From the NCBI GenBank assembly GCA_001871535.1, contig MNVF01000048.1:1-42136 (forward strand): a stretch of DNA of 42,136 nt. The letters run 5' to 3'. The notes beneath the pieces are model-generated. The model saw nothing but the letters and a program-made list of their open reading frames with translations. It was not told the origin of the DNA and did not search any database. This stretch comes from Candidatus Micrarchaeota archaeon CG1_02_49_24. GTDB lineage: Archaea; Micrarchaeota; Micrarchaeia; Anstonellales; UBA8471. The number at the start of each line of letters is the position of its first letter. Positions within the stretch are counted from its first letter, which is position 1. The translations under genes were made by a program, and so were the position numbers. Shown here piece by piece: positions 6,361 to 25,320 of this stretch.

Positions 6361-6487
6361 GGATTCCACCTGTCGAGCCGATGCAACCACCAGTCAGAGA
6401 CAGGTGAAATCCATAGCGTCAACAAGCATGCGCCCCGAGCGAAGCGAGCAAGCCACTGGTCTATGACCAGTGGTGGGCGCATGCTTA
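6361..6487. other. Two large palindromes immediately 3' of hsdR (possible terminator or repeat)
   Basis: ggattccacctgtc (6361-6374) pairs with gacaggtgaaatcc (6399-6412). aagcatgcgccc (6424-6435) pairs with gggcgcatgctt (6475-6486) and encloses ccactggtc-tat-gaccagtgg (6453-6473). The outer 3' arm overlaps the hsdR stop. Confidence 0.45.
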
Positions 6488-9400
6488 TTGACTCCACTCT
6501 TTGGCAACTAATTCCGCCTGTTCTAGCACGGTTTGGGTAGCTTTTTCCTGTTTGTCAGGCGGATATCCGTATTTTCTCAATATTTTTCTGACGGCTATCC
6601 TTATCTCTGCCTTAACGCTTTCCCTGACTGACCAGTCAATTTTTACATTCCTTTTCAAGGTTTCAGTTAACTCACGTGCAATTTTCCTTAATGTTTCATC
6701 ACCAAGAACTTTGACTGCACTATCGTTTGTTTCCAGGGCATCGTAAAACGCCATTTCATCTTCCCTCAAATTCAGTAATTCCCCTCTTTTATCGTGCTTT
6801 TTCATCTCTTTTGCCAGCTCTATAAGCCGTTCAATTACTTCAACAGTCTGTATATTCCTGTTCTGATATTGACTGATCGTTTTTTCCAGCAACTCTGTAA
6901 AAGATTTAGCTGCAACCTTATTCTTCTGTTCACATACTTTGATTTGGTCATTAATCAGCTTTTTCAGCATCTCTAGTGCGAGGTTCTTCTGCTCCATCCC
7001 CTGCACTTCAGCAAGAAACTCATCTGACAATATGGAGATGCCAGGTTTTTTCAACCCTGCAATTTCGAATATGTCTATTACCTTGTCAGAGGCAATGGCC
7101 TTCGAGACCAGTTGCCTAAGCGGTATATCATAATCCTCTTCAGAATACCCTGGTTCGCTTCCCGTAAGTTTGCCCAAATATGCTTTCAACGTCTGGAAAA
7201 ATCCCAGTTCATCAGCAATTTTCATTGCTTCCTCATGGGGCACGGATAAGGCAAAGGCGCGCTTCAACGCAGCAACATTTTTGAAAAATCTTTTTTGCCC
7301 ATTTTCTTGCCTGAGAATATGATTCATTGCATCTCTTAGAATCGTCTCTTTTTTTGAAAGCGCTGCTGTGGCAAAATCGTTATAATCAAACCCATGAAAC
7401 ATGCTGGATACTATCTCATATTTTTCGCGCATGATTTTGATGGCATCCTCCTGTTGGAATACTGGAGTACCTCCCCCACCGCTTTTAGTATATGTAAGGG
7501 TTGCTTCCTTAAGTGGTTGGATTATTCCTATATAATCAACGACCAGCCCGCCTGGTTTACCCTTGAAAACCCGGTTCACCCTTGCGATCGCCTGCATCAA
7601 CCCATGCTCTTTCATAGGTTTGTCAATGTATATTGTGTGAAGGCACGGCACATCAAACCCGGTAAGCCACATATCCCTGACGATAACGAGTTTAAGTTCA
7701 TCACCTGGGTCTTTTATCCTGTTTTCTATCATTTTCCGTTGTAGTTTGGTTCTCATATGCTCTCTTGCAGCGCCGGTTATGACTACTTTGATAGCGCCCT
7801 TGTCGTGCTCTTTGCTATACCATTCTGGCCGTAGTTTGACTATCGCATCATGCAAATCTATGCAAATCCTCCTGCTCATGCATACTATCAAACCTTTTCC
7901 GTCTAATGCGGCTTGCCGTTGTTCAAAATGGCTGACAATATCCTCGGCTATGTGCCGGATTCTTTTTTTTGCCCCTACGACTTTTTCCATTCGTGCCCAT
8001 TTTGTTTTCAATTTCTCTTTTGTTTCGGTTTCCTCAGCTTCAGTTATCTCTTTAAAGTCAGACTCAATTTTCGGCATTCTTTCAGTTTTCAGCCCTATTT
8101 TCGCAAGCCTGTTCTCGTAATAAATCTGGACGGTCATGCCGTCGTTTACGGATTGTTTCATGTCATAAATATCCTTGCATCCTCCGAAAACTGCGGTGGT
8201 GCTCCGGTCATTCGTTTCAATGGGCGTAGCCGTGAACCCTATGAACGATGCGTTTGGCAGGGCGTCCCGCATGTGCCTGGCAAACCCGTCTATGAAATCG
8301 TATTGGCTCCTGTGCGCTTCATCTGCGATTACTACAATATCCCTTCTGCCTGAAAGGAGCGGGAATTTTTCTCCTGCCTCAGCTAAAAATTTCTGGGCGG
8401 TTGTAAAGACGATTCCGCCAGACGCAACCTTCAGGAACTCTTTTAGCGCTTGTTTTGTTGCTGCCTGTTTTGGCATATTCCGCAATAACTCGCTGCATTT
8501 GCAAAAGGTTTCAAACAGTTGGTCGTCAAGGTCGTTCCTGTCTGTGATTACAACTATCGTCGGGTTTCCCATTGCGTCTACTATCTTCCCGGTGTAGAAT
8601 GCCATTGTCAGGCTTTTCCCGGAGCCTTGCGTATGCCAGATTATGCCAGCCCGTTTATCCCCAGAAGGACTGGCAGCTTCAATGGTGGATTTTAGCGCAG
8701 CTAATACGGCATAATATTGGTGATAGGCTGCAAGTTTTTTTATTATCTTTTCAGAGCTTTTGGATTTTTCTTTTTCAAATGTTATAAAATGCCTGACCAA
8801 ATCAATAATTACCTCCTTCCTGAGCATATCCAGAATAAGAGTATCCCTGGAAAATTGGTCCAACTCCTCCAAAACCTTGCCGTCAATGGCTTTCCATTCC
8901 ATAAACCGCTCTATATCCGAGCTGATAGTGCCGGCCCAGGCCTTAACGCCGTCGCTTATGATTATTATCTCATTGTAATGAAAGAGCGTGGATATCTCCC
9001 TAAGGTATCGTTGCATCTGAGCATAAGCTGTTGCCTTGTCTGCCTTTTCTTCTGCAGGATTTTTGAGCTCAATAACGACTAATGGCAGGCCGTTTACGAA
9101 TAGCACGATGTCAGTCCGCTTGTTTATGCCGTTTTCCTTCACAGTGAACTGGTTCACTGCCAGGAATTCGTTATTTTTGAGATTGGAGAAATCAACAAGC
9201 TTAACTGTGTCATCTTTGATAGAGCCATCCGTTCTCCGATATTGAACATCCACGCCGTCAACAAGCATTTTATGGAACAGATGGTTGTTGTGGATTAGCT
9301 TCTGGCTCTCAGCGCGCAGGACTTTTTTAACTGCTTCCTCTTTTGCATCGCCCGGAATCGCAGGGTTGGACCTGTCAATTGCATCGTTCAGCCGCTCAAT

Positions 9401-9544
9401 CAGCACTACCTCAGAATAGCTCTTTCGTTCTGGAGTTTTTCCATCAGGCGCGATGTCCGGGCCGAACAATATACTGTAGCCGTTCTGGCGCAGCTTTTGC
9501 AGAACGTTTTCTTCAATTCCGGATTCGGTTATTATGGATGCCAT
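6485..9544 (-). CDS. hsdR: Type I restriction enzyme R subunit
   Basis: 1019 aa. Walker A TQGSGKS, DEAH box IADEAHRSQ, helicase C-terminal motifs, and the typical type I HsdR N- and C-terminal regions. Confidence 0.95.
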
Positions 9545-10467
9545 TTATTTTCACCTTTTGTTAGGGTTTTATAGTTCGTATGTTCCCGTGTTATTGATGT
9601 TGGATTATTAGAAATAAACGTGACATCATCATCAATTAGTTCTTTCATTTTTTTTATTAAATCAATTGATTTGCTTAAACCATTAAAAGTAGTCACAACT
9701 ATCGGAAGAATTGGGTTACGTTTTGTTGTTAAACTTAGCTTATTGGCATATGGTTGTGGTGAAAGGTAAATAAAATTGTCAACGTCATCGAGATCTTTAA
9801 TTTCAAATCCTTCGTCCATACTAACTTTCATTATCTTCGCGTCAGTGACCAAAAGTGGGAAGCACGCATGAATTGGAAACATATTGTCAATTCCTTTATA
9901 ATTATTTAGTTCTCTTCTATGCACGTATTCGCAGGCAAAAGCTATATCTACTGACTCATCATAAACGATGTTATTACCCTCGTCCATTACTTTTTTCATA
10001 TTTCCCTTTTTTGTATCCTTATTTGAATTCTCGTCGACAATAGCTATATTCTCGCTGACACTTATTTTTCCTGCTAACTCAAAAAAACGTTTTGCTGATA
10101 TAACTCCACCCAAATAATGCTGAAATGTAAATCCATCATTAAGAAAGTTTGGTAACCTTAATATAAAATTTTCATTGTTAAAGTTCTCTTTTTCAAAAAT
10201 GCATATGTTTTTTGTTGCCCATTTTTTCACTTCACCTATAACTCTAACCGTAAGAAGGACGTTCATGTCTATATCCCTAGAGTGTAAAACATTAACTCCA
10301 AAATGGGCTTCAATATCCAAGTCTTTGGAAATGTCGTTCCCCGTTCTATCCGTGTTGTATTTAGATTGATATACTGTTAAGCCAAAGTCATGTAACTGTT
10401 TTCTAACTTTAATCTCTAATGGGAACCCTGTTTCTTTAAGGATGTCTTTCAAATCATTTTTGTTCAT
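9532..10467 (-). CDS. Hypothetical protein with PD-(D/E)xK-like N-terminal motif, embedded between hsdS and hsdR
   Basis: ..KDLDIEAHF..(27 aa)..VIGEVKKW (D...E-x-K). Overlaps hsdS by 4 nt (ATGA) and hsdR by 13 nt. Visibly more A/T-rich than hsdR. Confidence 0.45.
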
Positions 10468-11765
10468 GTTTTATCAACTACATTCAGAGGAACTCTGATT
10501 TTACCAGACATAAGCCTAGGGAGCAATGAATCGCGAATATCTGATAATGTTCTACATTCTAACAAGTTTCCCCTGATTCTTTCTATAACCTCATTGACCT
10601 TTCTTTCAAAAACCATAACCAATTTTTTGTTTGGAACAAGAATATGCATATCTCTAATGGCGTCCGAATTTGTAGCGGTCGCTATTGAGGATGTACTACC
10701 TAGGGATTCGAAATTAAAATTTTTCAGATAGAAATAAAGATATTTTGAACTTATGAGTGAATCCTTAAGCTGGAATTGAGCTATTGCTTCGTTGGACGCC
10801 ATTGCCTTTGAAGCGATCCCTATTCTTCCAACTGTTAATTTAAAGCTCAACATAACTGTTCCTTCGGGAATTATGGGTATCCGAAACTTTTGGATTGCTC
10901 CTTGTTTTAGATATTCTGAGGTGTCGAATATGAACATTCCCGACTTTCCCATATCTTTAATTGACACCCAACAGACGTCAATAGCTTCTGTTGTGAACCA
11001 TTCTGCCTCCTTTCGGGGCGGCGTCCGTCCAATCATGACTTCAGCTACGTCGTCAATACGCTTTATCGCCCACCCCTCCGGTATCTCTCCCAATTCCGAC
11101 TCAATCATCCTCCCGCCGCTTGACTTGTACGGCTTCCCGTTCTCGTCGGGAAACTCGAAGTCAACGAACCAGTGCTTGAACAACGCTTCCGCCATCGATT
11201 CAAGCGTTGCGTTCATCTCGCGGTTGAGCTCGATTTTGGCGTCTAAGTTAGAAAGGATTTTGGAGATAGCGTGTTGTTCATGAAGGGGCGGACAAGGTAC
11301 TAATAGCTTTGAAATTGTATTGGCGTTGAATTGAGGCTGTGCTCCGCCGTTTACTAGATTATTTGCTTGATTCCAATATAGACTACTTCGTGAGAATTGA
11401 AAGAAGAAATTACTGCCGATAATATTCTCCTTAAATAATAGCCTGATTAGAAAGCCTCCATATGTTGCCTTGAATTCTTTATCAAATAGATAGGTTTTCC
11501 CAAAGGATGCGCCAGTTCTTGCAACTAGAACATCGTTTTTCTTTAGAATCCACTCTTTTTTGACTCGATCTTTTCCAATAAATGTCAAACCGGTTTTGTT
11601 AAGAAAACCGTCTGAAGTTATGTCTGTAATTCTGAGGTATACATACTCGCCTGTTTCTTTTGCTCGTTCCCCTAACCCGTACTGAAAGCCAGCTATCTCT
11701 CCTAGTTCTCTTACTGCCCAGTCTTCAGGGATTTTTCCGATTTCGGTTTCTTTGAATTTTGTCAT
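10464..11765 (-). CDS. hsdS: Type I R-M specificity subunit
   Basis: Two variable halves separated by the conserved LHEQHAISKILSNLDAKIELNREMNATLESMAEALFKHWFVDFEFP, plus C-terminal LSDIRDSLLPRLMSGKIRV. ATG 11765 forms an ATGA overlap with the upstream stop. The track start at 11783 is less likely. Confidence 0.9.
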   Translation of the reverse strand: MTKFKETEIGKIPEDWAVRELGEIAGFQYGLGERAKETGEYVYLRITDITSDGFLNKTGLTFIGKDRVKKEWILKKNDVLVARTGASFGKTYLFDKEFKATYGGFLIRLLFKENIIGSNFFFQFSRSSLYWNQANNLVNGGAQPQFNANTISKLLVPCPPLHEQHAISKILSNLDAKIELNREMNATLESMAEALFKHWFVDFEFPDENGKPYKSSGGRMIESELGEIPEGWAIKRIDDVAEVMIGRTPPRKEAEWFTTEAIDVCWVSIKDMGKSGMFIFDTSEYLKQGAIQKFRIPIIPEGTVMLSFKLTVGRIGIASKAMASNEAIAQFQLKDSLISSKYLYFYLKNFNFESLGSTSSIATATNSDAIRDMHILVPNKKLVMVFERKVNEVIERIRGNLLECRTLSDIRDSLLPRLMSGKIRVPLNVVDKT

Positions 11766-12184
11766 TTGCCATTCCACATCCATCTAGGTCTGTTTGGTGC
11801 AAAGTTCCAGACATTTTTGAATAAATAAACGTTATCAAAAAAAGTATCATCTCCTATTAGTATTGCACCTTCAATATATGCTAATTTTTCAGTCGTTCCC
11901 ATGATAAAATAATCTTTTTCAGAAATTTTTTTATCAAAATCTGCAGACAGTATCTGTTCTATCTCTTTTTTCCTGGCAATTAAAAGTTCGCAGCTTTGGC
12001 AAAATCGGCAGGTTTTGTTCAAATTAAGAATCATTTTTCTTTTTTTTATTGCAATCGTTAGAGGAAGTTTTTTTATCTTCGTTGCATGATCGCATTTGGG
12101 GCATTTGGAAAAAGCACAATCAGGATAGGGATTCAGAAAAAAATAATATCTTTCTTTCATCTTTCTGGATTTACCCATAGTCAA
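11762..12184 (-). CDS. Zn-ribbon hypothetical protein embedded in the R-M operon
   Basis: CPKC...(33 aa)...CRFCQSC cysteine pairs. 140 aa. A/T-rich. No family recognised. Confidence 0.5.
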   Translation of the reverse strand: MTMGKSRKMKERYYFFLNPYPDCAFSKCPKCDHATKIKKLPLTIAIKKRKMILNLNKTCRFCQSCELLIARKKEIEQILSADFDKKISEKDYFIMGTTEKLAYIEGAILIGDDTFFDNVYLFKNVWNFAPNRPRWMWNGK

Positions 12185-12269
12185 CCAATCCTCATCAAAT
12201 TCTTCTTAGTCTCCTCTTCCAACCTATCCGATTCCTTAAACTGTTCAGAAAGCTCAGCAGTTAGTTTTT

Positions 12270-13529
12270 TCATTTCCATTTCCTCTTGATAACCTGCCAG
12301 TGCCCAGCACTGGTCGTGCCTTTTCTTTTTAGCAGTTTTTTATCCTTCAATTTCTTTATGTACTCTTTTATAGTATCAAGTCTAATCCCTAAATTGGCAG
12401 CTAATGCCGTTCTGGATAGTTTGGGATTGCCTGCCAATATATTCAGTATTTTCAGCTCTAGTTCGGTAATGTTAACTGGGGGGGTAGTTCTCTCCACTGT
12501 TTTAGCATCCTTCCCAACCCGCTTGAACACAGTTACAAACTGCCTTCCGACTTCCTCAAACAGGGTATCCGGTGCTTTTGACAATATCAGTCGTATCCCG
12601 CGGCCCCATTTCTCTATGAAATGTACCCGGTGGAGCATCTCAGCTATGAGTTCATTGCGCCGTTCTGACACACCCCCGCGACGTATCCGCGCAATCGTCA
12701 GCCCGCCGTAAAGCAAACCAGGGCTGCGGAGTTCCACCCTGTCAGTGAATACGGCTATGCTCACAGAATCATAGAGATGGTAATCGCGATGGCAGAAAGC
12801 GTTTATGATTGCTTCGCGTGTAGCCTCTTTGGGTATTTCCGGCACGTCAACCCTGTAAAGCCCTTCAAGGCGCATTCCAAGGTATGTATTCCGCGCTATA
12901 TATCCTTCTGCTTGCCCAATGAGATAAAACAGGTCGCCTTCGTATTCCTTCCTGTCAATGATGACTGCCGAATCAGTGCCGGCAAACACTGCACACCGCA
13001 ATTTTGCGTTGGGAAAGAATTTTTGCGGCTTGCGGGCGAACAGGAGCACTGCGGCATTAAGGATGCGCCCATTGGCTAGCAGGCTCAGTTTACTTAGCGA
13101 GTTTTTAACAGATACGTATCCAAGACCGGCAAGCTTCAAGAATTTTCTTAGCTTATTAGAGCTTATGTCAGTTAATTTTGCGCTTTGGCAGTTTTGCTTG
13201 TCCCAGCGCAGGGCATCCTTGTTTTTTGCAAGGATTATGCGCTCAAGCTCGCCGCCGCTTACCTGCTGGTCCTCATCACCAACTCGCATGTATGCCCTTC
13301 CATATGCTCTATATGGTGCATTTTGGCCGGAAAACTTAATGCAGATACACTGCCTGCCATCAAACTCAACCACTTCTATAACCGGATATACACGCGGCTC
13401 TATATGCGAGGAAATTGCCTGACTGATTGTTCTAATAGTAGTGTCAGCAACTTGCTGGCCCAGGATTATGCCATCATTCCCTATCCCGAAATACAGTTCG
13501 CCCTTTCCGTGCTTGTTAAGAATTGCCAC
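12270..13529 (-). CDS. Schlafen/AlbA_2 + HATPase_c_4-like + wHTH protein (COG2865 type), 5' end frameshifted
   Basis: Paralog of 15434-16810 (NKHGKGELYFGIGNDG; REAIINAFCHRDY; GLLYGGLT; C-terminal wHTH). The true N-terminus [12 protein letters not shown] starts at ATG 13600 in another frame, disrupted at an A6 run (13565-13570). Confidence 0.75.
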   Translation of the reverse strand: MAILNKHGKGELYFGIGNDGIILGQQVADTTIRTISQAISSHIEPRVYPVIEVVEFDGRQCICIKFSGQNAPYRAYGRAYMRVGDEDQQVSGGELERIILAKNKDALRWDKQNCQSAKLTDISSNKLRKFLKLAGLGYVSVKNSLSKLSLLANGRILNAAVLLFARKPQKFFPNAKLRCAVFAGTDSAVIIDRKEYEGDLFYLIGQAEGYIARNTYLGMRLEGLYRVDVPEIPKEATREAIINAFCHRDYHLYDSVSIAVFTDRVELRSPGLLYGGLTIARIRRGGVSERRNELIAEMLHRVHFIEKWGRGIRLILSKAPDTLFEEVGRQFVTVFKRVGKDAKTVERTTPPVNITELELKILNILAGNPKLSRTALAANLGIRLDTIKEYIKKLKDKKLLKRKGTTSAGHWQVIKRKWK

Positions 13530-13592
13530 AATGGAGATTAACGCATCCTTCAGTTCGGATGTTGTTTTTTCAACTCAAGCGTTTCTGATTCC

Positions 13593-15128
13593 TTAAACAT
13601 CATACCCTAGCCCCTTGAAGTTCTTCTTTATCTCTTCTTCCAACTCTTTTGATTTTTTGAATTGTTCTGAGAGTTCGGATGTAAGTCTCTTCATTTTATC
13701 TTGGAATTTTTCGTCATCCTCTTCTACCTCTTCAGTTCCAACATACCTGCCAGGAGTAAGTATATGCTCGTGCTTCCTAATCTCATCAAGCTTTACCGAT
13801 TTGCAGAAACCCGGCATATCCTCATATTTTCCGCCTTCGCCTCTCCAGGCATGGTAAGTGTCAGATATTCTCTTGATTTCTTCATCCGTCAGCTCCCTGT
13901 GTCTCCTGTCAATCATTGCGCCCATCTTGCGCGCATCAATAAACAAGACTTCGCCGCGCCTGTCGCGGAATTTGTGATTCTTCTTATCGCGCGCAACGAA
14001 CCACAGGCAGGCTGGAATCATTGTGTTGTAGAAAAGCTGGGACGGCAGGGCAATCATACAATCAACTATGTCCGCCTCAACTATTTTCCTGCGAATTTCT
14101 CCCTCACCGGACGTATTGGACGACATGGAACCATTCGCTAGGACAAAACCCGCAATTCCCGCAGGCGAGAGATGATGGATAAAGTGCTGCACCCAGGCAA
14201 AGTTTGCGTTTCCCGCAGGCGGAATGCCATATTTCCAGCGCACGTCGTCTTTGAGTTGTTCCCCTCCCCAGTCGCTCATGTTGAATGGCGGGTTGGCAAG
14301 TATGAACTCAGCTTTCAGGTCTTTATGGAGGTCGTTATGGAAACTGTCGCCCAATTGTATATTAGCGTCAATCCCCCGTATTGCAAGGTTCATGGTACAT
14401 AATCTCCAGGTGGTAGCGTTTGATTCCTGCCCATAAACTGAAATGTCCCCTAGTTTCCCCTGGCGCTCCTTAACAAATTTCTCGCTCTGGACAAACATTC
14501 CCCCTGAGCCGCAGCACGGGTCGTATATACGTCCTTTGTAGGGCTCTATCATTTCAACAAGGACGCGAACTATGCAGCGGGGAGTATAGAATTGCCCCCC
14601 TTTCTTGCCTTCAGCATCTGCAAACTGCCCTAAAAAGTATTCATAAACGCGTCCCAGGATATCCTTGCCTTTGCTTTCTGAATCACCCAATCCAATAGTC
14701 CCTATCAAATCGATTAATTCACCTAATCGTTGCTTATCAAGTGCAGGGCGTGCGTAATTTTTTGGAAGAACACCTTTAAGTTTAGGATTTTCATTTTCTA
14801 TTGCATCCATTGCATCATCTATAATCTTCCCAATTTCAGGCCGTTTTGCATTGCTCTGCAAATGGTCCCACCGTGCTTCCTTAGGCACCCAGAAAACGTT
14901 CTTCCTTTTGTATTCGTCCCTTTCTTCAGGCCCGAGGCTGTCGGTATCTTTTTTCAGTTCATCATAGCGTTCTTTGAATGAATCCGATATGTGTTTGAGA
15001 AAAATCAGGCCAAGCGCAACATGTTTGTATTCAGCAGCGTCCATATTACTTCGCATTTTGTCTGCTGCCTGCCAGAGCTTCTGCTCGAATCCAAGGTTTG
15101 CGCCGTTATTTTTTTCTTTAACCATCAA
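13593..15128 (-). CDS. hsdM: Type I R-M N6-adenine DNA methyltransferase subunit
   Basis: N-terminal [34 protein letters not shown], motif [11 protein letters not shown], and motif IV NPPF ([11 protein letters not shown]). Confidence 0.95.
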
Positions 15129-15216: not shown

Positions 15217-15441
15217 TTAATATTTTCTCTCCCATTTGGAAGGCTCGATAATCTTCTCCCCTTCCTTCTGCAGCATGTCCATTAGCTTCTTCCTCGTCTC
15301 GGAAATCATGCCTACGGCGTCATCTGGAGTTTTCGCATTCTGGACAGTAATCCTGTAGGACATGCCGGAAGCAAACCGGCTGATGCCAACACTCACCGTT
15401 TTCTCCCCGCTCACGGTTTTCTCATCAGTTTCATCATCCAT
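15217..15441 (-). CDS. Small hypothetical protein (74 aa) upstream of hsdM
   Basis: ATG 15441 overlaps the upstream stop by 8 nt (ATGGATGA). [34 protein letters not shown]... No family recognised. Confidence 0.4.
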
Positions 15442-16810
15442 TTGAATCACCCTTTTTGCTAGGGTTCCATTTCCCACAGCTCTTTTTTATCTCCCAATGC
15501 CCGCCCTTGTCAGGGCCCACGCGCTTCAGCACGCCGTCTTTGGTGAGCTTGCGCAACCGGGAGCGGATGGTGCTGATGGGCTTGCGGAGTTTCTGCGCAA
15601 TCGCCTTCTTTGAGATGGTCGGGTCGGAGAGGATAATTTCGATGAGTTTCTGGTACTTTTCAGGCACTTTGCAGGCATTCTCCGAACCTTTTTCGACGAT
15701 ATTTTCAGGCACTGGGCTCTTTCTCTTGAACACGGTGATGAAATGGCGCCCGACTTCCTTGAACGAAGCCGTTGGCTCTTTCTGCAATATCAGGCGGATG
15801 CCGCGGCCCCAGGCTTCGGCGTAATGGATGCGCTGCAACATGCTGACGATAAGTTCATTTCGCCTCTCAGAGACGCCTTCCTTTATAATGCGCTCAATCG
15901 TCAGCCCACCATAAAGCAAGCCGGGGCTGCTGATTTCCACCCGGTCGTTGAAGATGGCCACGTGCACCGAATCTGGATTATGATAATCCCGGTGGCAGAA
16001 GGCATTGATGATTGCCTCACGCAGCGCCGAACGGTCGATTTCAGGAACATCAACCCGTGCCAGTCCTTCCAACCGCTCGCCCACGTGGATGTTCTTGAGG
16101 ACATACGCTTGGGCATCTTCGATAAGGGTGAACAGGTCGCCCTCGAAGTCCTTCTTGTCAAGGATTGTGGCCGAGCCGGTGAATACGGCGCAGCGAAGCT
16201 TGGCGTTGTGGAAGAATTTCTGCGGCGAGCGCCCGAACAAGAGTATGGCGGCGTTCGTGAGCGCCCCGCTCGGTGATAGTATAAGGCCCATGTTGTGCAA
16301 TGCGAGATCTCTTGATTCGAGTTCAAGATTGGCCTTTTCTAGGAAAACGCCTAATTTTCCGGAGTCAATGTCATTGGACATGGCGCCTGGGCAGGGTTTG
16401 TCGTCCCAGTGCAAGGCGTCCTTGCTCTCCCGTATAATTAGCTCTCGCAGTTCCTTGCCGCTCAAGACGGGATTCTTGTCGCCCACGCGGGTGTAGGCGC
16501 GCCCATAGGCAAAATAAGGCATCTGGTTCCCGCTGACTTTGACGCGGATGCAGGGCTTCCCATCGATTCGCTCTTCCTGGATGTTAGGGAATATCTCCGG
16601 CTCGATATGGTCTTGGATGGATTTGGAGATGTCTGGCACTGTCATCTTTCCGATATCCTGCCCGGCCGCCTTTCCGTCGTCCTCTATGCCGAAGATGACT
16701 TCGCCCTGTCCGTGCTTGTTGAGCATGGCGCAGATAGAAATAATGGCCTCCTTGAGTTCGGAGGTTGATTTCTTGAGTTCAAGTGACTCTGATTCTTTGA
16801 GTTGCATCAT
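15434..16810 (-). CDS. Schlafen/AlbA_2 + HATPase_c_4-like + wHTH protein (COG2865 type)
   Basis: ESESLELKKS..NKHGQGEVIFGIEDDG (AlbA_2-type N-terminus), REAIINAFCHRDY..GLLYGGLT core, and C-terminal wHTH ISKKAIAQKLRKPISTIRSRLRKLTKDGVLKRVG. ATG 16810 overlaps the Csa3-like stop (TGATG). Confidence 0.8.
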   Translation of the reverse strand: MMQLKESESLELKKSTSELKEAIISICAMLNKHGQGEVIFGIEDDGKAAGQDIGKMTVPDISKSIQDHIEPEIFPNIQEERIDGKPCIRVKVSGNQMPYFAYGRAYTRVGDKNPVLSGKELRELIIRESKDALHWDDKPCPGAMSNDIDSGKLGVFLEKANLELESRDLALHNMGLILSPSGALTNAAILLFGRSPQKFFHNAKLRCAVFTGSATILDKKDFEGDLFTLIEDAQAYVLKNIHVGERLEGLARVDVPEIDRSALREAIINAFCHRDYHNPDSVHVAIFNDRVEISSPGLLYGGLTIERIIKEGVSERRNELIVSMLQRIHYAEAWGRGIRLILQKEPTASFKEVGRHFITVFKRKSPVPENIVEKGSENACKVPEKYQKLIEIILSDPTISKKAIAQKLRKPISTIRSRLRKLTKDGVLKRVGPDKGGHWEIKKSCGKWNPSKKGDSNG

Positions 16811-17403
16811 CACAGCACCGCCATCTTCCCGGTCAGCGTAATCTCAAACTTCTCATCCACATATCCGGCATCCTTCAATTCCTTCAAATGCTGATAGAGC
16901 ATGCCCGGAGTTTTGCCCAATTTGTCCGCAATCTCCGCAATCGGTTTCCCATTTCTCTTCTCAATCTCAAGCAGGAGCTCGCGTTTCGGCTCGGAAAGCC
17001 CGAAAGTCAGTTTCGGCAGCTCCACCAATTTGTTCAGGTCCGGCAATTCATTGCACACAATTTTTTCAACAAGCTCGGGCCGCGCATAGCACCCATACAA
17101 AACTCCCTGGGCCATGAGCTTCCACCCGCCTGAAACGTTCACAATCGCCCGGTTGTTTTTCTCCAGGAGCTCAACAGTCTTCTTGGCAACCGCAAAGATG
17201 TCCGCGCAGTCAACCACAATCTCCCTGATGTCAGCCACCGTGCCGTAAAGCTCCTTCACCTTCACCAGCCCCTCCTGCACCTTCTTTTCACCAGTGGAGC
17301 TGTTTGCTATCACCAGCACTATCTTGCCCGGCGAAAACGCATGCGCCGCTGCCACGAACGGCTCGAAAGAATAGAAAGTGGCTATCAGTGTAGTGTCGGC
17401 CAT
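16810..17403 (-). CDS. csa3: Csa3-like regulator (CARF-type Rossmann domain + C-terminal wHTH)
   Basis: TLIATFYSFEPFV..KIVLVIA..(~70 aa)..VNVSGGWKLMAQGVL follows the Csa3/CARF layout (beta1-[GF]-x-E, late GG-x-[KR]-x-[LM] motif). C-terminal LSEPKRELLLEIEKRNGKPIAEIADKLGKTPGMLYQHLKELKDAGYV is a wHTH. Confidence 0.6.
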   Translation of the reverse strand: MADTTLIATFYSFEPFVAAAHAFSPGKIVLVIANSSTGEKKVQEGLVKVKELYGTVADIREIVVDCADIFAVAKKTVELLEKNNRAIVNVSGGWKLMAQGVLYGCYARPELVEKIVCNELPDLNKLVELPKLTFGLSEPKRELLLEIEKRNGKPIAEIADKLGKTPGMLYQHLKELKDAGYVDEKFEITLTGKMAVL

Positions 17404-18756
17404 CTAATCATCACGTAAATGATAATAAAGTTCTTCCAGCTGTTTAACTGTATTAACTAACTGTTTTTTACAAAATTCAGGATTTTTCCAATCAATTTTC
17501 TTATTTGTGTATCTCTTGTTCCATTCAAATCCGATCTGTATTTGATTTACTTCCGCCCCATATTGTTTTGCGGTATCAATAAAATCCTGTATCGTCTTAA
17601 ACTCTAATTTAATTTTTTTATCGCTTTTTTTAAATTGAAGGGCAGGTTTCCAGTTATCTTCTGGAGTTTTATGACGATCTAGACGAAATTCCAGATTACA
17701 ACGGGTTGCAAATGGACCTAACTGCCCACCTTTTAGGGACTTGTAATCCTGTATCGCCATGTAGACGGTTCGCCCATAGTTCTTCTGCCCCGTAGTTTTT
17801 TTGTTCCATGATGCAATCTTAGTTATTCTTGGCCAAATTTCTTTCGATCTTAATTTTTTATTCGGGTCATGCAAAGTTAAAACAACTTTGAATTCATCTA
17901 AATTTACATTTGTAGTAAAATGAAGGTTCTTACTCTTCTCTTTACCCAGTTTACCAAAGTAAGATTTTACCCACGAATCATTTTTCTTCTCTCTTTCTTT
18001 TCCTTTTTCACCTGACGTCTGCATCTCCAGTTTTTCGCCTTTTTGACTTTTTATAGCTGCAAAGTTTATCAGACATCGAACGTCGTGATTAAAGCTAGAT
18101 TGGTCATTGCCATAAAATCCATAGAAGTCATCTGTCAATCTCATCACCCTCAGACAATCTAGGTATTGTTCTATCAGAAATTTTTCGATTTTTACTTGAG
18201 ATTTTTTTTCAGCATCAGAAAGCACGCCATAGAGTTCATCCCAGTCTATTGTGTGCCATATCTCACGCTTGCGTTTCATCAGCCTGAAACCGCCCTCCTC
18301 TATCTTCTTAGCATATTTTTTTAGCTGAACTGGGTCTTTTTTGCTATCTGTCTTTGCTTCCAAGAATAGTATTACGTCGTTATATTCTATCATAGCATCT
18401 ATAATTATCTTGTCTCCTCCGCGTCCAGGTTTTTTTTCATTTGGCGTAGTACTCTTTGATAGAAACAGCAAGTATGCGTCCTTTTTTGGAAGTGTTTTTA
18501 GTTCTTTGTCGCTGATTTGGGAGGATACTCGTATTATTTCACTTAAATCTTTCTTACTTATTTTAATCTTAGTTGAGATGAATTTTGTAAACGCATCCCT
18601 AGTTCTTAGACACTCAGGTGAGCGAATAAAAAAAAGAAGGTCTTTCGTGACGTTATTCTCTACGTTCTTCAATTCTCCGTCCTCTTTTTGACGTTGGTGC
18701 CAAAAGAGGTTCTCCCATTTTTCGTCTCCCACGCTTATCCCTTGTTCTGGCAACAT
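17404..18756 (-). CDS. Large hypothetical protein with RecB/Cas4-like PD-(D/E)xK signature; first gene of the operon
   Basis: IIDAMIEYNDVILFLEAKTDSKKDPVQLKKY gives D...E-A-K...Q-x-x-x-Y. The ~300-aa C-terminal region is unassigned. ATG 18756 is preferred over the TTG at 18774 used by the track. A/T-rich. Confidence 0.5.
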   Translation of the reverse strand: MLPEQGISVGDEKWENLFWHQRQKEDGELKNVENNVTKDLLFFIRSPECLRTRDAFTKFISTKIKISKKDLSEIIRVSSQISDKELKTLPKKDAYLLFLSKSTTPNEKKPGRGGDKIIIDAMIEYNDVILFLEAKTDSKKDPVQLKKYAKKIEEGGFRLMKRKREIWHTIDWDELYGVLSDAEKKSQVKIEKFLIEQYLDCLRVMRLTDDFYGFYGNDQSSFNHDVRCLINFAAIKSQKGEKLEMQTSGEKGKEREKKNDSWVKSYFGKLGKEKSKNLHFTTNVNLDEFKVVLTLHDPNKKLRSKEIWPRITKIASWNKKTTGQKNYGRTVYMAIQDYKSLKGGQLGPFATRCNLEFRLDRHKTPEDNWKPALQFKKSDKKIKLEFKTIQDFIDTAKQYGAEVNQIQIGFEWNKRYTNKKIDWKNPEFCKKQLVNTVKQLEELYYHLRDD

Positions 18757-18838
18757 ATAAATGTGTTGTGTCAAGATAGTTATTTGATAGTTAAGGAATA
18801 AACTATACTGTTAAGGATGTAGGTGTTATGGTGGTTGC

Positions 18839-19363
18839 ATGTGCGAGCCGATAGGCGAAATTGCAGAGGTGTTTGAGAAATTGTGCGCGAAGTATAAGGC
18901 GGGTGTTGGCTTTGATGAGGAGACGGCAAACCGGATTGCCAGCGAAGTTGACCCGAGATTTGTGCTAAAGGTGGTTCAAATCGAAAAGGGACAGATAGGC
19001 GATGAGAAGTGCAAATCAGAGCTCCTTGAGAGGGCACGGAAGCTGCGGGAAGAAATAAAGGATAAGCAGTATGTTGGCACCTACCTGTTCCTGCCGCTTT
19101 CACGGGAGGAAGTTGTTAAATCACATAGGGAAAAGGGCGCCATAAGCAATTTTATCAACCATGTTTTATCATCAGTCGGCTTGTGCGCGGGAAGGGGCAG
19201 ATGCATTGGGAATTTTTATGGTTCTGACAAGGGCAAAAGAATATACGTGATGTTTGCCTACTGTGATGAGGCGCTTTACAGGCAAATCGTGAGCCATCGA
19301 AGGGAAGAAACTTGCTTGTTTGTGAAAACTGCGGGAAGCGCAAAGACAGGTGATGGGAAATGA
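18839..19363 (+). CDS. Hypothetical protein (174 aa), first gene of a three-gene operon
   Basis: ORF with 4-nt overlap to the next gene. No recognisable motif. Confidence 0.5.
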   Translation: MCEPIGEIAEVFEKLCAKYKAGVGFDEETANRIASEVDPRFVLKVVQIEKGQIGDEKCKSELLERARKLREEIKDKQYVGTYLFLPLSREEVVKSHREKGAISNFINHVLSSVGLCAGRGRCIGNFYGSDKGKRIYVMFAYCDEALYRQIVSHRREETCLFVKTAGSAKTGDGK

Positions 19364-19635
19364 ATAAGGAATCTGACCCGTTTACAAGGCTGGCAGAGGG
19401 AAACAACAACAGGTGCTATGACGTGAAAGGGACGGTGGAGCTTGCGGATGACGGGTACGTTGAAGTGAATCTCACGGCTGAGGATGGCTCAGGGCAGATT
19501 CTTCATCTCCACAGATATACCGATGGAACTGGAAAAGGCAAGGTCATTGGCTGGGACTGCTGGGTGTTTGAAAACAAAGGAAATGTGCGCCGGCATCATT
19601 GCATGTCTGAGAAAAACAAGAAGGTGGGAAAATGA
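19360..19635 (+). CDS. Hypothetical protein (91 aa)
   Basis: ATGA overlaps at both ends (19360-19363 and 19632-19635). No motif recognised. Confidence 0.5.
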   Translation: MNKESDPFTRLAEGNNNRCYDVKGTVELADDGYVEVNLTAEDGSGQILHLHRYTDGTGKGKVIGWDCWVFENKGNVRRHHCMSEKNKKVGK

Positions 19636-20093
19636 ATTTGGGTGAAGCATTGCTGGAACTTAAGGGCATGAAGTCTGAGCTCGTGCGGCTCATGGAGGCG
19701 AGGGAAACCACGTTTGCCTATTCGGAGGAGCCGCCGGTTGAGAAAACAACCGGGCTTTCAGGGCAGATTGCCATCCTGGTGCAGGAGATAAGGAAGCTGA
19801 AGATGAGGGTGGAGCGCACCAACCATTCTTCCTTCATTGATACACCTGAAGGGAAGATGGCGATTGCCGAGGCAATAATCAGCATTGGGGACATGCGCTC
19901 AGAGCTTGCCTCGCTGGAAAAGCTGCGAGATAAGTTCCGCGAGGAGCGGGATTCCTGGCACGAGCAGAAGCCGAAGAAATTCCAGGCAGGGCAAAAGGAA
20001 TTGCTGGCGCAGATTAGGGAGCTTGAGAAACAGAAAGTGAGGATGGACTCCTTCCTTTCAAGCTGGAACTGGAAGGTGGAGCTTAAAGACTGA
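19632..20093 (+). CDS. DIP1984-like (so-called septicolysin-like) helical protein
   Basis: ~150 aa. LGEALLELKGMKSEL.., central ..RVERTNHSS..G.MAIAEAI..GDMRSEL and C-terminal ..WNWKVEL match my recollection of that family's pattern (L-x-EAL.., R-x-N, NW-x-x-x-L). Not verified by search. Confidence 0.45.
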   Translation: MNLGEALLELKGMKSELVRLMEARETTFAYSEEPPVEKTTGLSGQIAILVQEIRKLKMRVERTNHSSFIDTPEGKMAIAEAIISIGDMRSELASLEKLRDKFREERDSWHEQKPKKFQAGQKELLAQIRELEKQKVRMDSFLSSWNWKVELKD

Positions 20094-20308: not shown

Positions 20309-21265
20309 ATGATACGATTAGATTTTAACAAACAAGAGATGGGCGTTATGAAATTCAACAAGCGGGAGATGGAAGTCCTTGATTTCGCGGCAGGAAAAAG
20401 GGCCAACCTGACGCACCTGGCGCAAGCGCTGGGGATGAAAAAATCAAATCTGACAATTTATGTGAAAAAACTCAACAGATACCAGCTTGTTGTTTTAACC
20501 AAAAGCGGGCGAAACAAGGAACTGGCATTGGGCAACGGGAATCTGGCCGGTTTTGCTGCGCTGAAGCCGGGTTTTCCTACGCTCAAGCTGAGCGATATTC
20601 TAGCTGGGAAAGCCCCATTTCTGCTTAGTTTCATGAAAGATAAGCAGCTTTTGAGAATAAGCGAGCTTGATATCCCTGCAATAACTGCCAAACGGCTGCT
20701 TGGGAAGCTCAGGAACCTTGGGCTGGTGTCAATGCCCCGAAAAGGCATGTATCGGCTTAGGGGCGAAGCCGGGATAGTCGGGGATTTTTGCAGGAATATG
20801 CTTGTGCAGGCATATTTTGCCGAAGCTTCCGATGAGCTCGGGCAACTTGAATACGGTGTATATTCATTTGACAGTGCAAAAGAGCTTGGGGCTGTTTTCG
20901 CAACTCTGAGAGAGTTTCGCCCAAAGAATTATTGGCCTACTGCGTACACCATAGCGCACCAATATGGCCTGGGGCTAATCCAGGCGGGAAGGCACTATTA
21001 CGCAAACGCCAAGCCGGATTTAGGAGACGTGATAATCCACACACTATCCATTTCAAAGGATGCCAGGGGCATCAACTATGCCGCATTCCTGGTTCTCAAA
21101 AATAAGTACAACCCGCGCCTCCTGCTCAAAAAGAGGCATACATTTGGGCTGGGCAGGAAGTATCTAACCAATTTCGTTGAATTTATAGAAACCAGGGGTG
21201 AAAAGCCATTCGGCGGCCTTGGATCCCTGAAAGAAGCAGAGGAGATGTTTAATGGAAAGCTTTGA
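20309..21265 (+). CDS. wHTH DNA-binding protein, partner of the downstream nucleotidyltransferase
   Basis: MKFNKREMEVLDFAAGKRANLTHLAQALGMKKSNLTIYVKKLNRYQLV is a wHTH. Same layout as 644-1519. Alternative start at ATG 20348. A/T-rich TATA-like run at 20275-20305 upstream. Confidence 0.6.
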   Translation: MIRLDFNKQEMGVMKFNKREMEVLDFAAGKRANLTHLAQALGMKKSNLTIYVKKLNRYQLVVLTKSGRNKELALGNGNLAGFAALKPGFPTLKLSDILAGKAPFLLSFMKDKQLLRISELDIPAITAKRLLGKLRNLGLVSMPRKGMYRLRGEAGIVGDFCRNMLVQAYFAEASDELGQLEYGVYSFDSAKELGAVFATLREFRPKNYWPTAYTIAHQYGLGLIQAGRHYYANAKPDLGDVIIHTLSISKDARGINYAAFLVLKNKYNPRLLLKKRHTFGLGRKYLTNFVEFIETRGEKPFGGLGSLKEAEEMFNGKL

Positions 21266-21881
21266 CGCTGGCTATATTGGCAATGAACTTCAGTTCATAG
21301 GCTCCAGGGTCAAAAAACCAGTCAGCATTTACCTGATAGGCGGCTGCGCCATGGCCTTCAGGGGGCTGAAGGAGGTTACCAAGGACATAGACATAGTGTT
21401 CAGGGATAAGGGCGACTGCGAGGCCTTCTGCGATGCGCTGTTTGGCGCACAATACTTTGAGCCAATCGTCATAACAAGTGAGCATAAGGGCCTGGAAACT
21501 ATCAAGATATACGAAAACAAGGACAAATTCCATCTGGATTTATTCGTAAAGCGGGTTTGCGGAAAGATGGTGCTTTCCGAGCGGATGGTAAAAAGGGCGG
21601 AGCTTTACAAAAAATACGGGAATTTAGGCGTTTACCTTTTGGCTAAGGAGGACGTCTTCCTTTTCAAGAGCTTGGCAAGCGAGGCAAGGAAACGGGACCT
21701 CGGGGACATGCGGGTTATTTACCCGAACCTTGACTGGGGAGTTATAAAAGAAGAACTTTCTTCGCAAGAGCTGTCCAGGAACCTTATCGCGCTGGTCGTC
21801 CGGCGCCTTGAGGAATTCAGGTCAGTTTACGATTTGGGCGTGCCGATTCTCAATGCCTTGAAGAAAATGGCAGGTGATTAG
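21252..21881 (+). CDS. Minimal nucleotidyltransferase-fold protein (AbiEii/DUF6036-like)
   Basis: IYLIGGCAMAFRGLKEVTKDIDIVF. 14-nt overlap with the upstream wHTH gene. Paralog of 1521-2264. Confidence 0.6.
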   Translation: MESFDAGYIGNELQFIGSRVKKPVSIYLIGGCAMAFRGLKEVTKDIDIVFRDKGDCEAFCDALFGAQYFEPIVITSEHKGLETIKIYENKDKFHLDLFVKRVCGKMVLSERMVKRAELYKKYGNLGVYLLAKEDVFLFKSLASEARKRDLGDMRVIYPNLDWGVIKEELSSQELSRNLIALVVRRLEEFRSVYDLGVPILNALKKMAGD

Positions 21882-21921
21882 CATTGTACGAAAGATACAG
21901 AAAATATCAGAGGTTGAGAAA

Positions 21922-22617
21922 ATGATTAAGGCAATCCTATTCGATTTGGACAATACCCTGATTGACTTCTCAGGCTTCAAGCGGGAGAGCGCGCTTGCTG
22001 CAGCCAGTGCCATGAGAAAGGCAGGCGTGCATCTTTCCGGGCATTCGCTTTACGGGCGCATTTACGAAGTCTATAATGAGAAGGGGATTGAGTACCAGCG
22101 CACGTTTGGGGATGTGCTCTACGGATTGGATTTGGACCCACATACGCGCGAGCGTGCACGGCAGGCGGCAATTATTGCCTATACCAAGAAGAAATATGAG
22201 TGCCTGAAGCCACGGCCAAAGGCCATGCAGCTGCTAACATCCCTCAGGGCGAAATACACGCTGGCCATTGTCACGGATGCGCCCAGGGACAAGGCATGGC
22301 AGCGGCTCATTCTCTCAGGGCTGGACGGGTTTTTCTATCCTGTTGTGACTTTCAACGATACGGGCGAGGAGAAGCCTGCGGTTGCGCCGTTCAGGAGGGC
22401 GCTTTCCATCTTGAAAGTGAAACCTGTGGATGCGCTATTCGTAGGTGACAATCCGGAAAGGGACATTATCGGCGCGAAAAAGATTGGGATGAAAACCTGC
22501 CTTGCGAAATACGGCTGCCAGGATTACCACGAAGAGATGGATGTGGCGGATTACAGGATTGGGAAGTTTGAGGAACTGAAAGAGGTTATTGAAAGATTGA
22601 AAGCCAGTGAGCAATAA
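21922..22617 (+). CDS. HAD-superfamily hydrolase
   Basis: MIKAILFDLDNTLIDF (DxDxT motif I), IVTDAP (motif II) and GDNPERDIIGAKKIGMKT (motif IV). ATG 21922 is preferred over the track start at 21874. Confidence 0.85.
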   Translation: MIKAILFDLDNTLIDFSGFKRESALAAASAMRKAGVHLSGHSLYGRIYEVYNEKGIEYQRTFGDVLYGLDLDPHTRERARQAAIIAYTKKKYECLKPRPKAMQLLTSLRAKYTLAIVTDAPRDKAWQRLILSGLDGFFYPVVTFNDTGEEKPAVAPFRRALSILKVKPVDALFVGDNPERDIIGAKKIGMKTCLAKYGCQDYHEEMDVADYRIGKFEELKEVIERLKASEQ

Positions 22618-22675
22618 CCCAACGCATACATGCACATTTAAATAGGTGAATACACATAGATACACTGGTGATTAT

Positions 22676-22900
22676 ATGGTGAACGTAACTATCTCAATAA
22701 CAACGGACATCAAGGAGATGATTGACAGGCATCCTGAGATTAACTGGTCCGAGGTTGCCCGTCAGGCCTGGAAAGAGAAAGCGCAACAGCTTGAGCTTTT
22801 GAATAAATTAACTATCGGAAGCAAAGCCAGCGACAAGGATGTGGATGAGCTGGCAAAATTGCTGAAAAAAGGGATTGCTGAATGGCATGAGAGAAGATAG
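22676..22900 (+). CDS. vapB: Antitoxin-like small protein upstream of the PIN gene
   Basis: 74 aa. MVNVTISITTDIKEMIDRH.. has an N-terminal beta-strand/helix pattern typical of archaeal VapB-type partners. Its stop is 2 nt before the PIN ATG. Confidence 0.5.
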   Translation: MVNVTISITTDIKEMIDRHPEINWSEVARQAWKEKAQQLELLNKLTIGSKASDKDVDELAKLLKKGIAEWHERR

Positions 22901-22902
22901 AT

Positions 22903-23328
22903 ATGGAACTCGTGGCAGATACCAACATTGTCGCAGCCGCTATCTTACGTGATGGGCTGACAAGAAGCCTGCTTTTCCGTTCAGATATCCAGGCATACTC
23001 TCCAGCGCATCTTTTGGATGAACTGGAAAAATACAAACCAGAGTTTATGGAAAAATCCGGGCTGAGCCCAGATTCTTATGACGATGCCGTTAAATTGGTG
23101 CTTAGAAATGTGTCTACTTCCCAGTTGGATAATTATGCCCAGTTTGAGCAAGAAGCGAAAAAAATATCACCTGACCCTGGCGATTGGCCGTTCTTTGCGC
23201 TTGCCCTGGCAAAAAATTGTGCAGTTTGGAGCAATGATAAAAAGCTGAAAAATCAGAAGCAGGTAACGGTTTATGATACAACAGAGTTGTATGGCATCCT
23301 GCCTAAACCGGAAAGGGGCACGTTATGA
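22903..23328 (+). CDS. vapC: PIN-domain ribonuclease (VapC-like toxin)
   Basis: MELVADTNIVAAAIL (N-terminal D-T-N), ..E.. and C-terminal DWPFFALALAKNCAVWSNDKKL acidic residues. 141 aa. Confidence 0.75.
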   Translation: MELVADTNIVAAAILRDGLTRSLLFRSDIQAYSPAHLLDELEKYKPEFMEKSGLSPDSYDDAVKLVLRNVSTSQLDNYAQFEQEAKKISPDPGDWPFFALALAKNCAVWSNDKKLKNQKQVTVYDTTELYGILPKPERGTL

Positions 23329-23600: not shown

Positions 23601-23624
23601 AAATGAAAGTATTTGGTGATTGAA

Positions 23625-24227: not shown

Positions 24228-24273
24228 TCGCAACGGCGCAGAATTGAAATATACAAATTTGTATTATAAAAAA

Positions 24274-25257: not shown

Positions 25258-25314
25258 TTCCATGGTCTCTCTAACCTTTTACGGCGGCGCGAACGAAATC
25301 GGCGGCAATAAAAT
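25258..25314 (+). pseudogene. 57-nt duplicate of the RNase J gene 5' end (direct repeat with 26488-26544)
   Basis: ttccatggtctctctaaccttttacggcggcgcgaacgaaatcggcggcaataaaat is identical at both places. It encodes MVSLTFYGGANEIGGNKI and then breaks off. Confidence 0.9.
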
Positions 25315-25320
25315 TACAGC

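Follow-up and report, generated by a model that had tools for sequence, protein, structure and literature searches.

Here we have characterized a Csa3-family protein of 197 aa that is encoded in a 42,136-bp stretch of DNA, hereafter the window, which is a complete contig of Candidatus Micrarchaeota archaeon CG1_02_49_24. The protein has the genuine architecture of Csa3, with a CARF domain followed by a winged helix-turn-helix (wHTH), and it lies within a cluster of restriction-modification (R-M) and other defence genes. We compared 27 distinct loci with sequence downstream of Csa3, covering about 10 kb per side, and found that the conserved unit is the Csa3 gene with its operator, while the cargo is interchangeable. 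No CRISPR-Cas system was found within about 10 kb of Csa3 at these 27 loci. The explanation that we favour, and regard as probable though by a modest measure, is that of a vertically inherited, autoregulated CARF sensor-regulator without a CRISPR partner that drives exchangeable defence cassettes. This orphan Csa3 appears to be a control point that serves non-CRISPR immunity throughout the lineage.

The identity of the 197-aa protein is established by both profile and fold. It scored 76.9 bits against a cutoff of 60.2 with the NCBIfam model TIGR01884 (CRISPR-associated CARF protein Csa3) over residues 3-185, and matched the PADLOC models CARF3--CARF (full length, E 7e-47), CasR (E 4e-26) and Csa3 (E 4e-13). 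Pfam HTH_24 was above its cutoff; Csa3_N (20.6 bits, cutoff 27), CARF_Card1 and HFX_2341_N were all sub-cutoff. An AlphaFold2 (AF2) model built from 28 homologues had a mean predicted local distance difference test score (pLDDT) of 92.6 and displayed a beta-alpha-beta core, with three helices and a wing after it. Comparison of this model with the PDB by Foldseek placed the Csa3 structures 6wxq, 2wte and 6w11 at the top (E about 1e-8), and the next ranks were all CARF proteins, namely Csm6, Can2, Cam1, Card1 and the ring nuclease Sis0811 (7pq3). An initial annotation, made from the sequence alone, had proposed a Csa3-type CARF-wHTH layout on the strength of TLIATFYSFEPF and a VNVSGGWKLM motif. 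Both of these lie in the 197-aa open reading frame (ORF), and the predicted fold is that of a CARF domain rather than of some other Rossmann-like domain.

Residues that are invariant across the family are concentrated in three places: the beta1-alpha1 loop (T9, F10, Y11, S12 and P15), the beta4-alpha4 loop (G92 and K95, inside SGGWK, S91-K95) and the recognition helix (Y170, Q171, H172, L173 and K174). In Csa3a, cyclic tetra-adenylate (cA4) is contacted by motifs at these same two loops, and the pocket motifs of Csa3 proteins are T-h-G-F-(N/D)-E for motif 1 and L-x2-G-h-R for motif 2 (PMC8699464). The 197-aa protein reads T9-F-Y-S-F-E-P15 and S91-G-G-W-K95 at the corresponding positions; these agree in position and conservation but not in the residues themselves, with T-F-Y-S-F-E in place of motif 1 and G-W-K in place of G-h-R. 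The pocket thus has Ser and Lys, as in Card1 and Crn1, instead of Gly-Phe and Arg. Ser and Lys are key residues of the cA4 pockets of Sis0811, Sis0455 and Card1 (PMC9638899), and in a profile alignment the GGWK motif aligned with SGGTK of Can2 and with Card1. From these residues, a functional nucleotide pocket in the 197-aa protein is plausible.

Searches detected 147 homologues of the protein at 53-100% identity, and those with a named source were almost all from Micrarchaeota. Across this phylum the Csa3 is conserved at 42-89% identity, with relatives in 24 loci from archaeal species-representative genomes. No relatives were found on IMG/VR viral contigs, and a mobile or viral origin of Csa3 was rejected for this reason. 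As part of the same best explanation, we consider it reasonably probable that the Micrarchaeota Csa3 is vertically inherited and chromosomally fixed and that its cargo is exchanged. Two metagenome-assembled genomes (MAGs) contain two Csa3 loci each, on separate contigs: JACRGB01 (L013 and L017) and JAUSHJ01 (L011 and L014). The upstream synteny described below is present at both JACRGB01 loci and, in JAUSHJ01, at L011 only; the downstream cargo is unlike between L013 and L017, and L014 stops at Csa3. These paired loci could be real paralogy or mixed-strain bins.

The hallmark of the Csa3 family, an association with CRISPR-Cas in type I-A or type I/III loci, is missing from these loci. Neither the 42-kb contig nor about 445 kb of homologous loci contained tandem or CRISPR-like arrays, hidden Markov model (HMM) scans of essentially all large ORFs of the window gave no cas or nucleotide cyclase families, and there were no cas families among the annotated neighbours of five homologues. 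The array and HMM scans agree with the initial annotation, which had described the window as lacking an array, cas genes and an obvious cyclase.

The second component of the conserved unit is a palindrome. At most loci a consensus inverted repeat, GTATAG-N7-CTATAC, is situated about 55-58 nt before the ATG of Csa3 or before the first gene of the operon, followed after some 6-8 nt by a TATA-like box (TTTAAAAGCTTAAC) and, about 25-30 nt beyond that, by the start codon. The outer TGT...ACA bases are invariant. A scan of 432 kb detected 8 perfect copies and 13 with at most one mismatch, where first-order Markov simulations led us to expect 0 and 0.1. Twelve of these 13 copies head Csa3 operons. 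The other is in L020, where a second perfect copy (GTATAGGTATTTACTATAC, 4048-4066) marks the 5' end of a convergent gene for a 947-aa UvrD-PDDEXK_1 protein whose homologues are found immediately after Csa3 in L024-L026; from this copy one may suspect a small Csa3 regulon that would extend beyond its own operon. The layout is shared with Csa3a of Sulfolobales, in which the palindrome lies just upstream of the transcription factor B recognition element and TATA box (PMC8699464).

In the window the sole match to the operator is GTATAGTTTATTCCTTAAC, an imperfect inverted repeat that is a clade variant of the consensus. Two AT-rich, TATA-like boxes, TATCAAATAAC and ATTTATAT, lie about 29-31 nt upstream of two candidate starts, ATG 18756 and GTG 18732, and initiation at either codon would mean a leaderless or near-leaderless mRNA. 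A divergent three-gene unit starts 31 nt from the operator and may, because of this proximity, be controlled from the same site.

Neighbouring genes were taken from database annotation for five loci and from our own ORF maps with Pfam for the others, the gene maps of L007-L030 coming from a crude longest-ORF caller. On the divergent upstream side there is usually a HAD hydrolase and an MBL-RMMBL (RNase J-like) gene, a synteny seen in at least 15 loci. Downstream, the first gene is co-directional with Csa3 in 26 of the 27 loci, and most junctions between Csa3 and cargo consist of an ATGA overlap or a spacer of about 9 nt with a Shine-Dalgarno-like GGTG. The cargo itself is of at least ten restriction or nuclease types, including Type I, II, IIG and IV (Table 1), and the coupling of Csa3 to AlbA_2 seen in the window recurs in L003, L012 and L015. 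Co-directionality and codon-precise coupling with such non-homologous cargo indicate selection for co-expression with Csa3. The R-M-centred operon of the initial annotation therefore holds in part: the link with R-M is real and general across Micrarchaeota, but the operon is not specific to R-M and its cargo is interchangeable. No tRNA was consistently near Csa3 across the examined loci, leading us to reject a tRNA-anchored integration hotspot. No conserved att-like sequence was seen at the Csa3-cargo junctions, which lie directly at the stop codon. The literature that could be searched, whose coverage did not extend to the 2020 CARF classification, yielded no account of such an arrangement in Micrarchaeota.

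Within the window, nine large co-directional ORFs and one ORF of 86 aa run on the minus strand from 18774 to 6485. The stop codon of the first, nuclease-like ORF directly abuts the ATG of Csa3 (TAGATG), and the stop codon of Csa3 overlaps the AlbA_2 start as ATGA, a stop-to-start sandwich that had been recognized in the initial annotation. Further along, HsdR, HsdM and HsdS of a Type I R-M system are all present in the one cluster, each with strong Pfam and PADLOC matches. Gaps of 63-88 bp precede hsdM, the second AlbA_2 gene and a 140-aa ORF.

The nuclease-like ORF is 456 aa long from the longest start (TTG), 450 aa from ATG 18756, as first annotated, and 442 aa from GTG 18732. The true start is probably one of the latter two codons, and a homologue, P0123, starts at the position of GTG 18732. 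In an alignment (A3) with the closest relatives, L001, L007 and L008, the operator of the window, both AT-rich boxes and the sequence from ATG 18756 to GTG-GGA-GA (18732) are homologous to the region upstream of Csa3. Past the homologous first three codons, the relatives enter Csa3 (T-L-I-A-T-F-Y-S-F) and the window enters the nuclease-like ORF (K-W-E-N-L-F-W). Homology up to this point followed by divergence indicates that the head of the Csa3 operon was the exact point of insertion of the nuclease gene. Thus the region 18775-18838, initially annotated as the promoter, does contain a promoter and an operator, but these are the ancestral Csa3 promoter with the nuclease gene inserted behind it. 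The same arrangement of operator, promoter, a 44-47%-identical nuclease homologue and Csa3 at zero gap is present in L032, an independent contig of 1.8 kb. L018 has a homologue of 410 aa as the gene immediately downstream of Csa3, and in L010 and L012 other PD-(D/E)xK genes (YhcG; PDDEXK_4 at E 1e-13) occupy the position between operator and Csa3. The L032 homologue (76-1358) is split by a frameshift into ORFs of 331 aa and 110 aa, and this cassette may be decaying.

The 456-aa protein has only 7 relatives among 1.8 billion representative proteins, and its family is nearly confined to a few metagenomic sequences, three of which adjoin a Micrarchaeota Csa3. Conserved positions are ENNVTK, D126, E139-x-K141, Q150xxxY154 and W178, with E39 as a further motif residue. 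The D..EAK..QLKKY signature reported in the initial annotation is present; the window reads E139-A-K141 and Q150-LKK-Y154, and E139, K141, Q150 and Y154 are invariant in 7 sequences (alignment A2). In an AF2 model built from 7 sequences (pLDDT 68.6), the predicted elements H35-51, E80-87/E99-106, E125-131 (with D126), E134-141 (ExK), H148-160 (QxxxY) and E173-177 fit an alpha-beta-beta-beta-alpha-beta core. Three of the 7 family members gave weak matches to Pfam PDDEXK_4 (best E 0.009) and three to PADLOC PDC-S26 (best E 6e-5); the 456-aa protein itself had no match in Pfam, NCBIfam or the sequences of the PDB. A RecB/Cas4-like label, originally attached to this protein, was not sustained. None of the 7 family members matched Cas_Cas4 (PF01930) or PDDEXK_1 (PF12705), even at E up to 1, the four-Cys Fe-S motif of Cas4 is absent, with cysteines scattered singly and none conserved in alignment A2, and Foldseek of the model against the PDB returned nothing at E <= 0.001 (best matches glycosidases and McrB DNA-binding domains, E >= 0.5). 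Given the absence of these cysteines and family matches we refer to the protein as a PD-(D/E)xK-like, PDC-S26-like near-orphan that is not demonstrably RecB or Cas4. Its weak HMM similarity to PDC-S26 and PDDEXK_4 centres on the D..ExK..QxxxY core, and it is similar to them in length (about 400 aa) and in lying within a defence island, but it scores far below their thresholds and has about 240 C-terminal residues without a match.

In the mechanism that we propose, a dimer of the Csa3-like protein would bind the inverted repeat beside the TATA box of its own promoter (18790-18808 in the window). Binding would control, with either sign, one long transcript of Csa3 and the defence genes fused behind or in front of it; the transcript of the window, about 12 kb, would carry the PD-(D/E)xK/PDC-S26-like nuclease, AlbA_2 and a Type I R-M system in which two extra genes are embedded. 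The invariant Ser after beta1 and the GGxK Lys after beta4, as in CARF domains that bind cA4, suggest that a small nucleotide ligand in the CARF pocket would modulate DNA binding, and the defence output would thereby track an infection or stress signal. Several observations weigh against this proposal. The gaps of 63-88 bp could harbour internal promoters within the 12-kb cluster. The canonical source of ligand is missing, as the window has no cyclase and CRISPR-Cas is rare in DPANN. The HAD and MBL-RMMBL genes upstream are also syntenic, so that the true targets could be on the divergent side. Finally, the recognition helix is invariant while the operator half-sites vary (CTATAC, CTTAAC and ATAGAC); a co-variation of residue 166 (Pro/Arg) with the half-site (CTTAAC/CTATAC) was considered and dropped, since L012 combines Pro with CTATAC.

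A bolder version of the proposal is that the locus is a phylum-wide, integron-like site of defence expression, in which unrelated R-M, nuclease and abortive-infection cassettes are swapped codon-precisely on either side of a fixed CARF-wHTH gene with its operator and promoter, and in which the pocket senses a cA4-like or RNA-damage-derived nucleotide that is made without Cas10 or acquired from the host cell to which these episymbionts are attached. We put this forward tentatively, as a possibility with the odds against it. Alternatively, Csa3 may be a core housekeeping regulator that happens to sit beside a recombination hotspot, with the HAD and MBL-RMMBL genes or distant genes as its targets and the defence genes borrowing its promoter without any logic specific to defence. 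Such a role would fit the upstream synteny in at least 15 loci, the core-gene-like conservation of Csa3 and its absence from viral contigs, the position of the operator in the divergent intergenic region at about 14-31 nt from the start of the divergent gene, and the piling up of defence genes on both sides in the window. We nevertheless consider it rather unlikely: co-directionality in 26 of 27 loci, with ATGA overlaps and 9-nt spacers joining Csa3 to non-homologous cargo, points to selection for co-expression, the second operator copy in L020 heads a defence-type UvrD-nuclease gene, and in the window the HAD and MBL genes have been displaced by 3-9 kb while the operator has stayed with the Csa3 operon.

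The remaining explanations look to known functions of CARF proteins. An ordinary CRISPR-associated Csa3, for which a type I/III CRISPR-Cas system elsewhere in the genome both supplies cyclic oligoadenylates and is the target, would make the R-M neighbourhood incidental. The protein does pass the NCBIfam Csa3 model and its pocket resembles those of cA4 binders (PMC9638899), our inspection spanned about 10 kb per side in the relatives and one contig of the CG1_02_49_24 MAG, and CRISPR-Cas is known from one Micrarchaeote at least, ARMAN-1 (PMC5864196). Set against this, arrays and cas genes are absent from the 42-kb contig and from 432 kb of homologous loci, the Csa3 gene is widespread in Micrarchaeota even though CRISPR-Cas is under-represented in DPANN (PMC12988326), and the conserved operator is found at the gene's own promoter and at the UvrD-nuclease gene, not at CRISPR leaders; this explanation is improbable. 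We give marginally less credence still to a Crn1-like ring nuclease or sponge that breaks down or captures cyclic oligoadenylates, perhaps dampening the signalling of a host or of the cell itself. Invariant Ser12 and the GGxK Lys95 are the residue pair of the ring nucleases Sis0811 and Sso1393 (PMC9638899), and Sis0811 (7pq3) was among the Foldseek matches, but Card1 has the same pair without cleaving cA4 (PMC9638899), the highest-ranking HMM and fold matches all belong to the Csa3/CARF3/CasR clade of regulators, and the invariant recognition helix together with a palindrome at its own promoter argues for DNA binding. Ring-nuclease and DNA-binding activities are not mutually exclusive.

Compared with Csa3a and Csa3b of Sulfolobales and the Csa3 of Thermus (2wte, 6w11, 6wxq), the 197-aa protein has the CARF and wHTH fold in common but is only 13-15% identical to the solved structures. 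None of the 27 loci has a CRISPR array, a cas gene or Cas10 near the Micrarchaeota Csa3, which is a syntenic DPANN gene whose apparent target is its own operon with R-M and nuclease cargo. By analogy of mode of action, it resembles most closely the sensor-wHTH regulators of defence systems (BrxR/CapW) and R-M controller (C) proteins. BrxR and CapW are WYL-wHTH proteins that combine a ligand sensor with a wHTH, are encoded first in the operons of varied bacterial defence systems and autoregulate from an inverted repeat. They travel with their system, whereas the Micrarchaeota regulator is archaeal, has a CARF sensor and is chromosomally fixed with exchanged cargo. C proteins are small, consist of an HTH only, head R-M operons with a palindromic C-box at their own promoter and move with the cognate R-M; in contrast, the Micrarchaeota Csa3 has a CARF sensor, is conserved regardless of the type of R-M and also precedes cargo other than R-M. 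A parallel between CARF and WYL has been drawn previously (PMC4012209), and the same study reports a frequent association of RtcR-like CARF-AAA+-HTH proteins with R-M, as well as some CARF genes that are unlinked to CRISPR (PMC4012209). Transcriptional control by CARF outside CRISPR-Cas and an association with R-M are thus common to both, but the RtcR-like group consists of bacterial sigma-54 activators that have a divergent CARF and, in addition, an AAA+ domain, while the Micrarchaeota protein is a minimal Csa3-type regulator.

Other features of the window are collected in Table 1. The short ORF of 86 aa, which shares 44 nt with the 3' end of the first AlbA_2 gene, is possibly not a genuine gene. 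Just upstream of the second AlbA_2 gene (13530-13592, minus strand) there is coding for 12 residues that match the first AlbA_2 protein at its N-terminus, and behind an A-run this frame ends in a stop codon; the apparent frameshift may reflect a pseudogene, an error of sequencing or phase variation at the tract. The spacer 12185-12269 (minus strand) translates to KKLTAELSEQFKESDRLEEETKKNL, which is similar to the C-terminal end of HsdM (13593-15128). This spacer looks like a 3' remnant of hsdM and so points to rearrangement of cassettes within the Type I system. Neither the 140-aa Cys-rich ORF nor the 311-aa ORF had a family match in the Pfam, PADLOC and NCBIfam HMM scans. A 35%-identical homologue of the 311-aa ORF occurs between hsdS and hsdR of the Type I system of L008, and the ORF of the window has a D-x-D-I-E...G-E-V-K pattern that is suggestive of another PD-(D/E)xK nuclease. 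Immediately past the hsdR stop, at about 6420-6485, is a long GC-rich inverted repeat (GCATGCGCCC ... GGGCGCATGC) that may be a terminator or the recombination boundary of the cluster.

Across the divergent promoter, defence genes continue as an island at 20309-29172, mostly on the plus strand and interspersed with the syntenic HAD and MBL-RMMBL genes. The window also has three AbiE/MNT-like pairs of a wHTH and a Pol-beta-type nucleotidyltransferase, at 644-2264 (plus), 4166-5633 (minus) and 20309-21881 (plus), one of them of DUF6036 type. In PADLOC, the wHTH partners of two of the three resemble the wHTH of Csa3/CasR. These pairs are the only enzymes of nucleotidyltransferase fold in the window, and there is no indication of cyclic-nucleotide synthesis by them.

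Table 1. Features of the window and kinds of cargo associated with Csa3 across the compared loci
Feature	Position or loci	Strand	Basis or remark
HsdR, Type I R-M restriction subunit	6485..9544	-	Last co-directional gene of cluster; Pfam HSDR_N, SWI2_SNF2, T1RH-like_C; PADLOC REase_I, 1062.8 bits
311-aa ORF between hsdS and hsdR	9532..10467	-	L008 homologue
HsdS, Type I R-M specificity subunit	10464..11783	-	Pfam Methylase_S, two domains; PADLOC Specificity_I
140-aa Cys-rich, zinc-ribbon-like ORF	11762..12184	-	Translation only; overlaps hsdS start
Second AlbA_2/HATPase_c_4/wHTH gene	12270..13529	-	Pfam; 5' end apparently frameshifted
HsdM, Type I R-M methyltransferase	13593..15128	-	Pfam N6_Mtase (E 2.6e-112), HsdM_N; PADLOC MTase_I
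86-aa ORF	15217..15477	-	Just upstream of hsdM
AlbA_2/Schlafen + HATPase_c_4 + wHTH	15434..16813	-	Pfam; start overlaps Csa3 stop
Csa3-family CARF-wHTH protein, 197 aa	16810..17403	-	HMM, AF2 and Foldseek
PD-(D/E)xK-like ORF	17404..18774	-	First gene of operon; longest start TTG, 456 aa; C-terminal half without match
Promoter region, two AT-rich TATA-like boxes	18755..18789	-	TATCAAATAAC at 18779-18789, ATTTATAT at 18755-18762; box assignment inferred
Putative Csa3 operator, imperfect inverted repeat	18790..18808	-	GTATAGTTTATTCCTTAAC; clade variant of GTATAG-N7-CTATAC
Divergent three-gene unit (174 aa, 91 aa, DUF6847/DIP1984-like 153 aa)	18839..20093	+	Start 31 nt from operator
wHTH + DUF6036-type nucleotidyltransferase pair	20309-21881	+	
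HAD hydrolase	21874-22617		Syntenic
PIN	22903-23328		
RNA-ligase-like gene	23613-24227		
Mrr-like PDC-S02 gene	24169-25257		
DUF4268 nuclease PDC-S11	25402-26481		
MBL-RMMBL	26492-27850		Syntenic
SoFic/PDC-S04	28255-29172		
Cargo: Type I R-M	Window, L008, L013, L027		
Cargo: DpnII R-M	L005, L016		
Cargo: BsoBI R-M + TIR	L001		
Cargo: MvaI/BcnI R-M	L017		
Cargo: MmeI- or IIG-like enzymes	L003, L004, L010, L019, L023, L025		
Cargo: other N6_N4 methyltransferases	L006, L022		
Cargo: ResIII	L007		
Cargo: GmrSD	L009		
Cargo: Mrr-like	L018		
Cargo: AlbA_2	Window, L003, L012, L015, L028		
Cargo: AbiEi/AbiEii	L030		
Cargo: YhcG, RmuC, HARE-HTH/PDDEXK_5 nucleases	L011, L008, L013		
Cargo: UvrD-PDDEXK_1 helicase-nucleases	L024-L026		

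Csa3 and CARF proteins have so far been understood almost entirely within the signalling of type I/III CRISPR systems. We describe here a Csa3-family protein that is conserved in a DPANN phylum where CRISPR-Cas is rare and that has kept an invariant pocket and an operator. The exchange of cassettes with codon precision at a fixed promoter informs how defence islands are assembled. If the protein is ligand-responsive, the reach of CARF signalling would include R-M and other innate defences of archaea, a signal source not yet known would have to exist, and one protein with one 19-bp site would provide a simple system for the regulation of costly defences in reduced-genome symbionts. Finally, if the pocket does sense a nucleotide in the way that the bolder version of our proposal supposes, non-CRISPR immunity would be coupled to a second messenger in a lineage that is largely without CRISPR.

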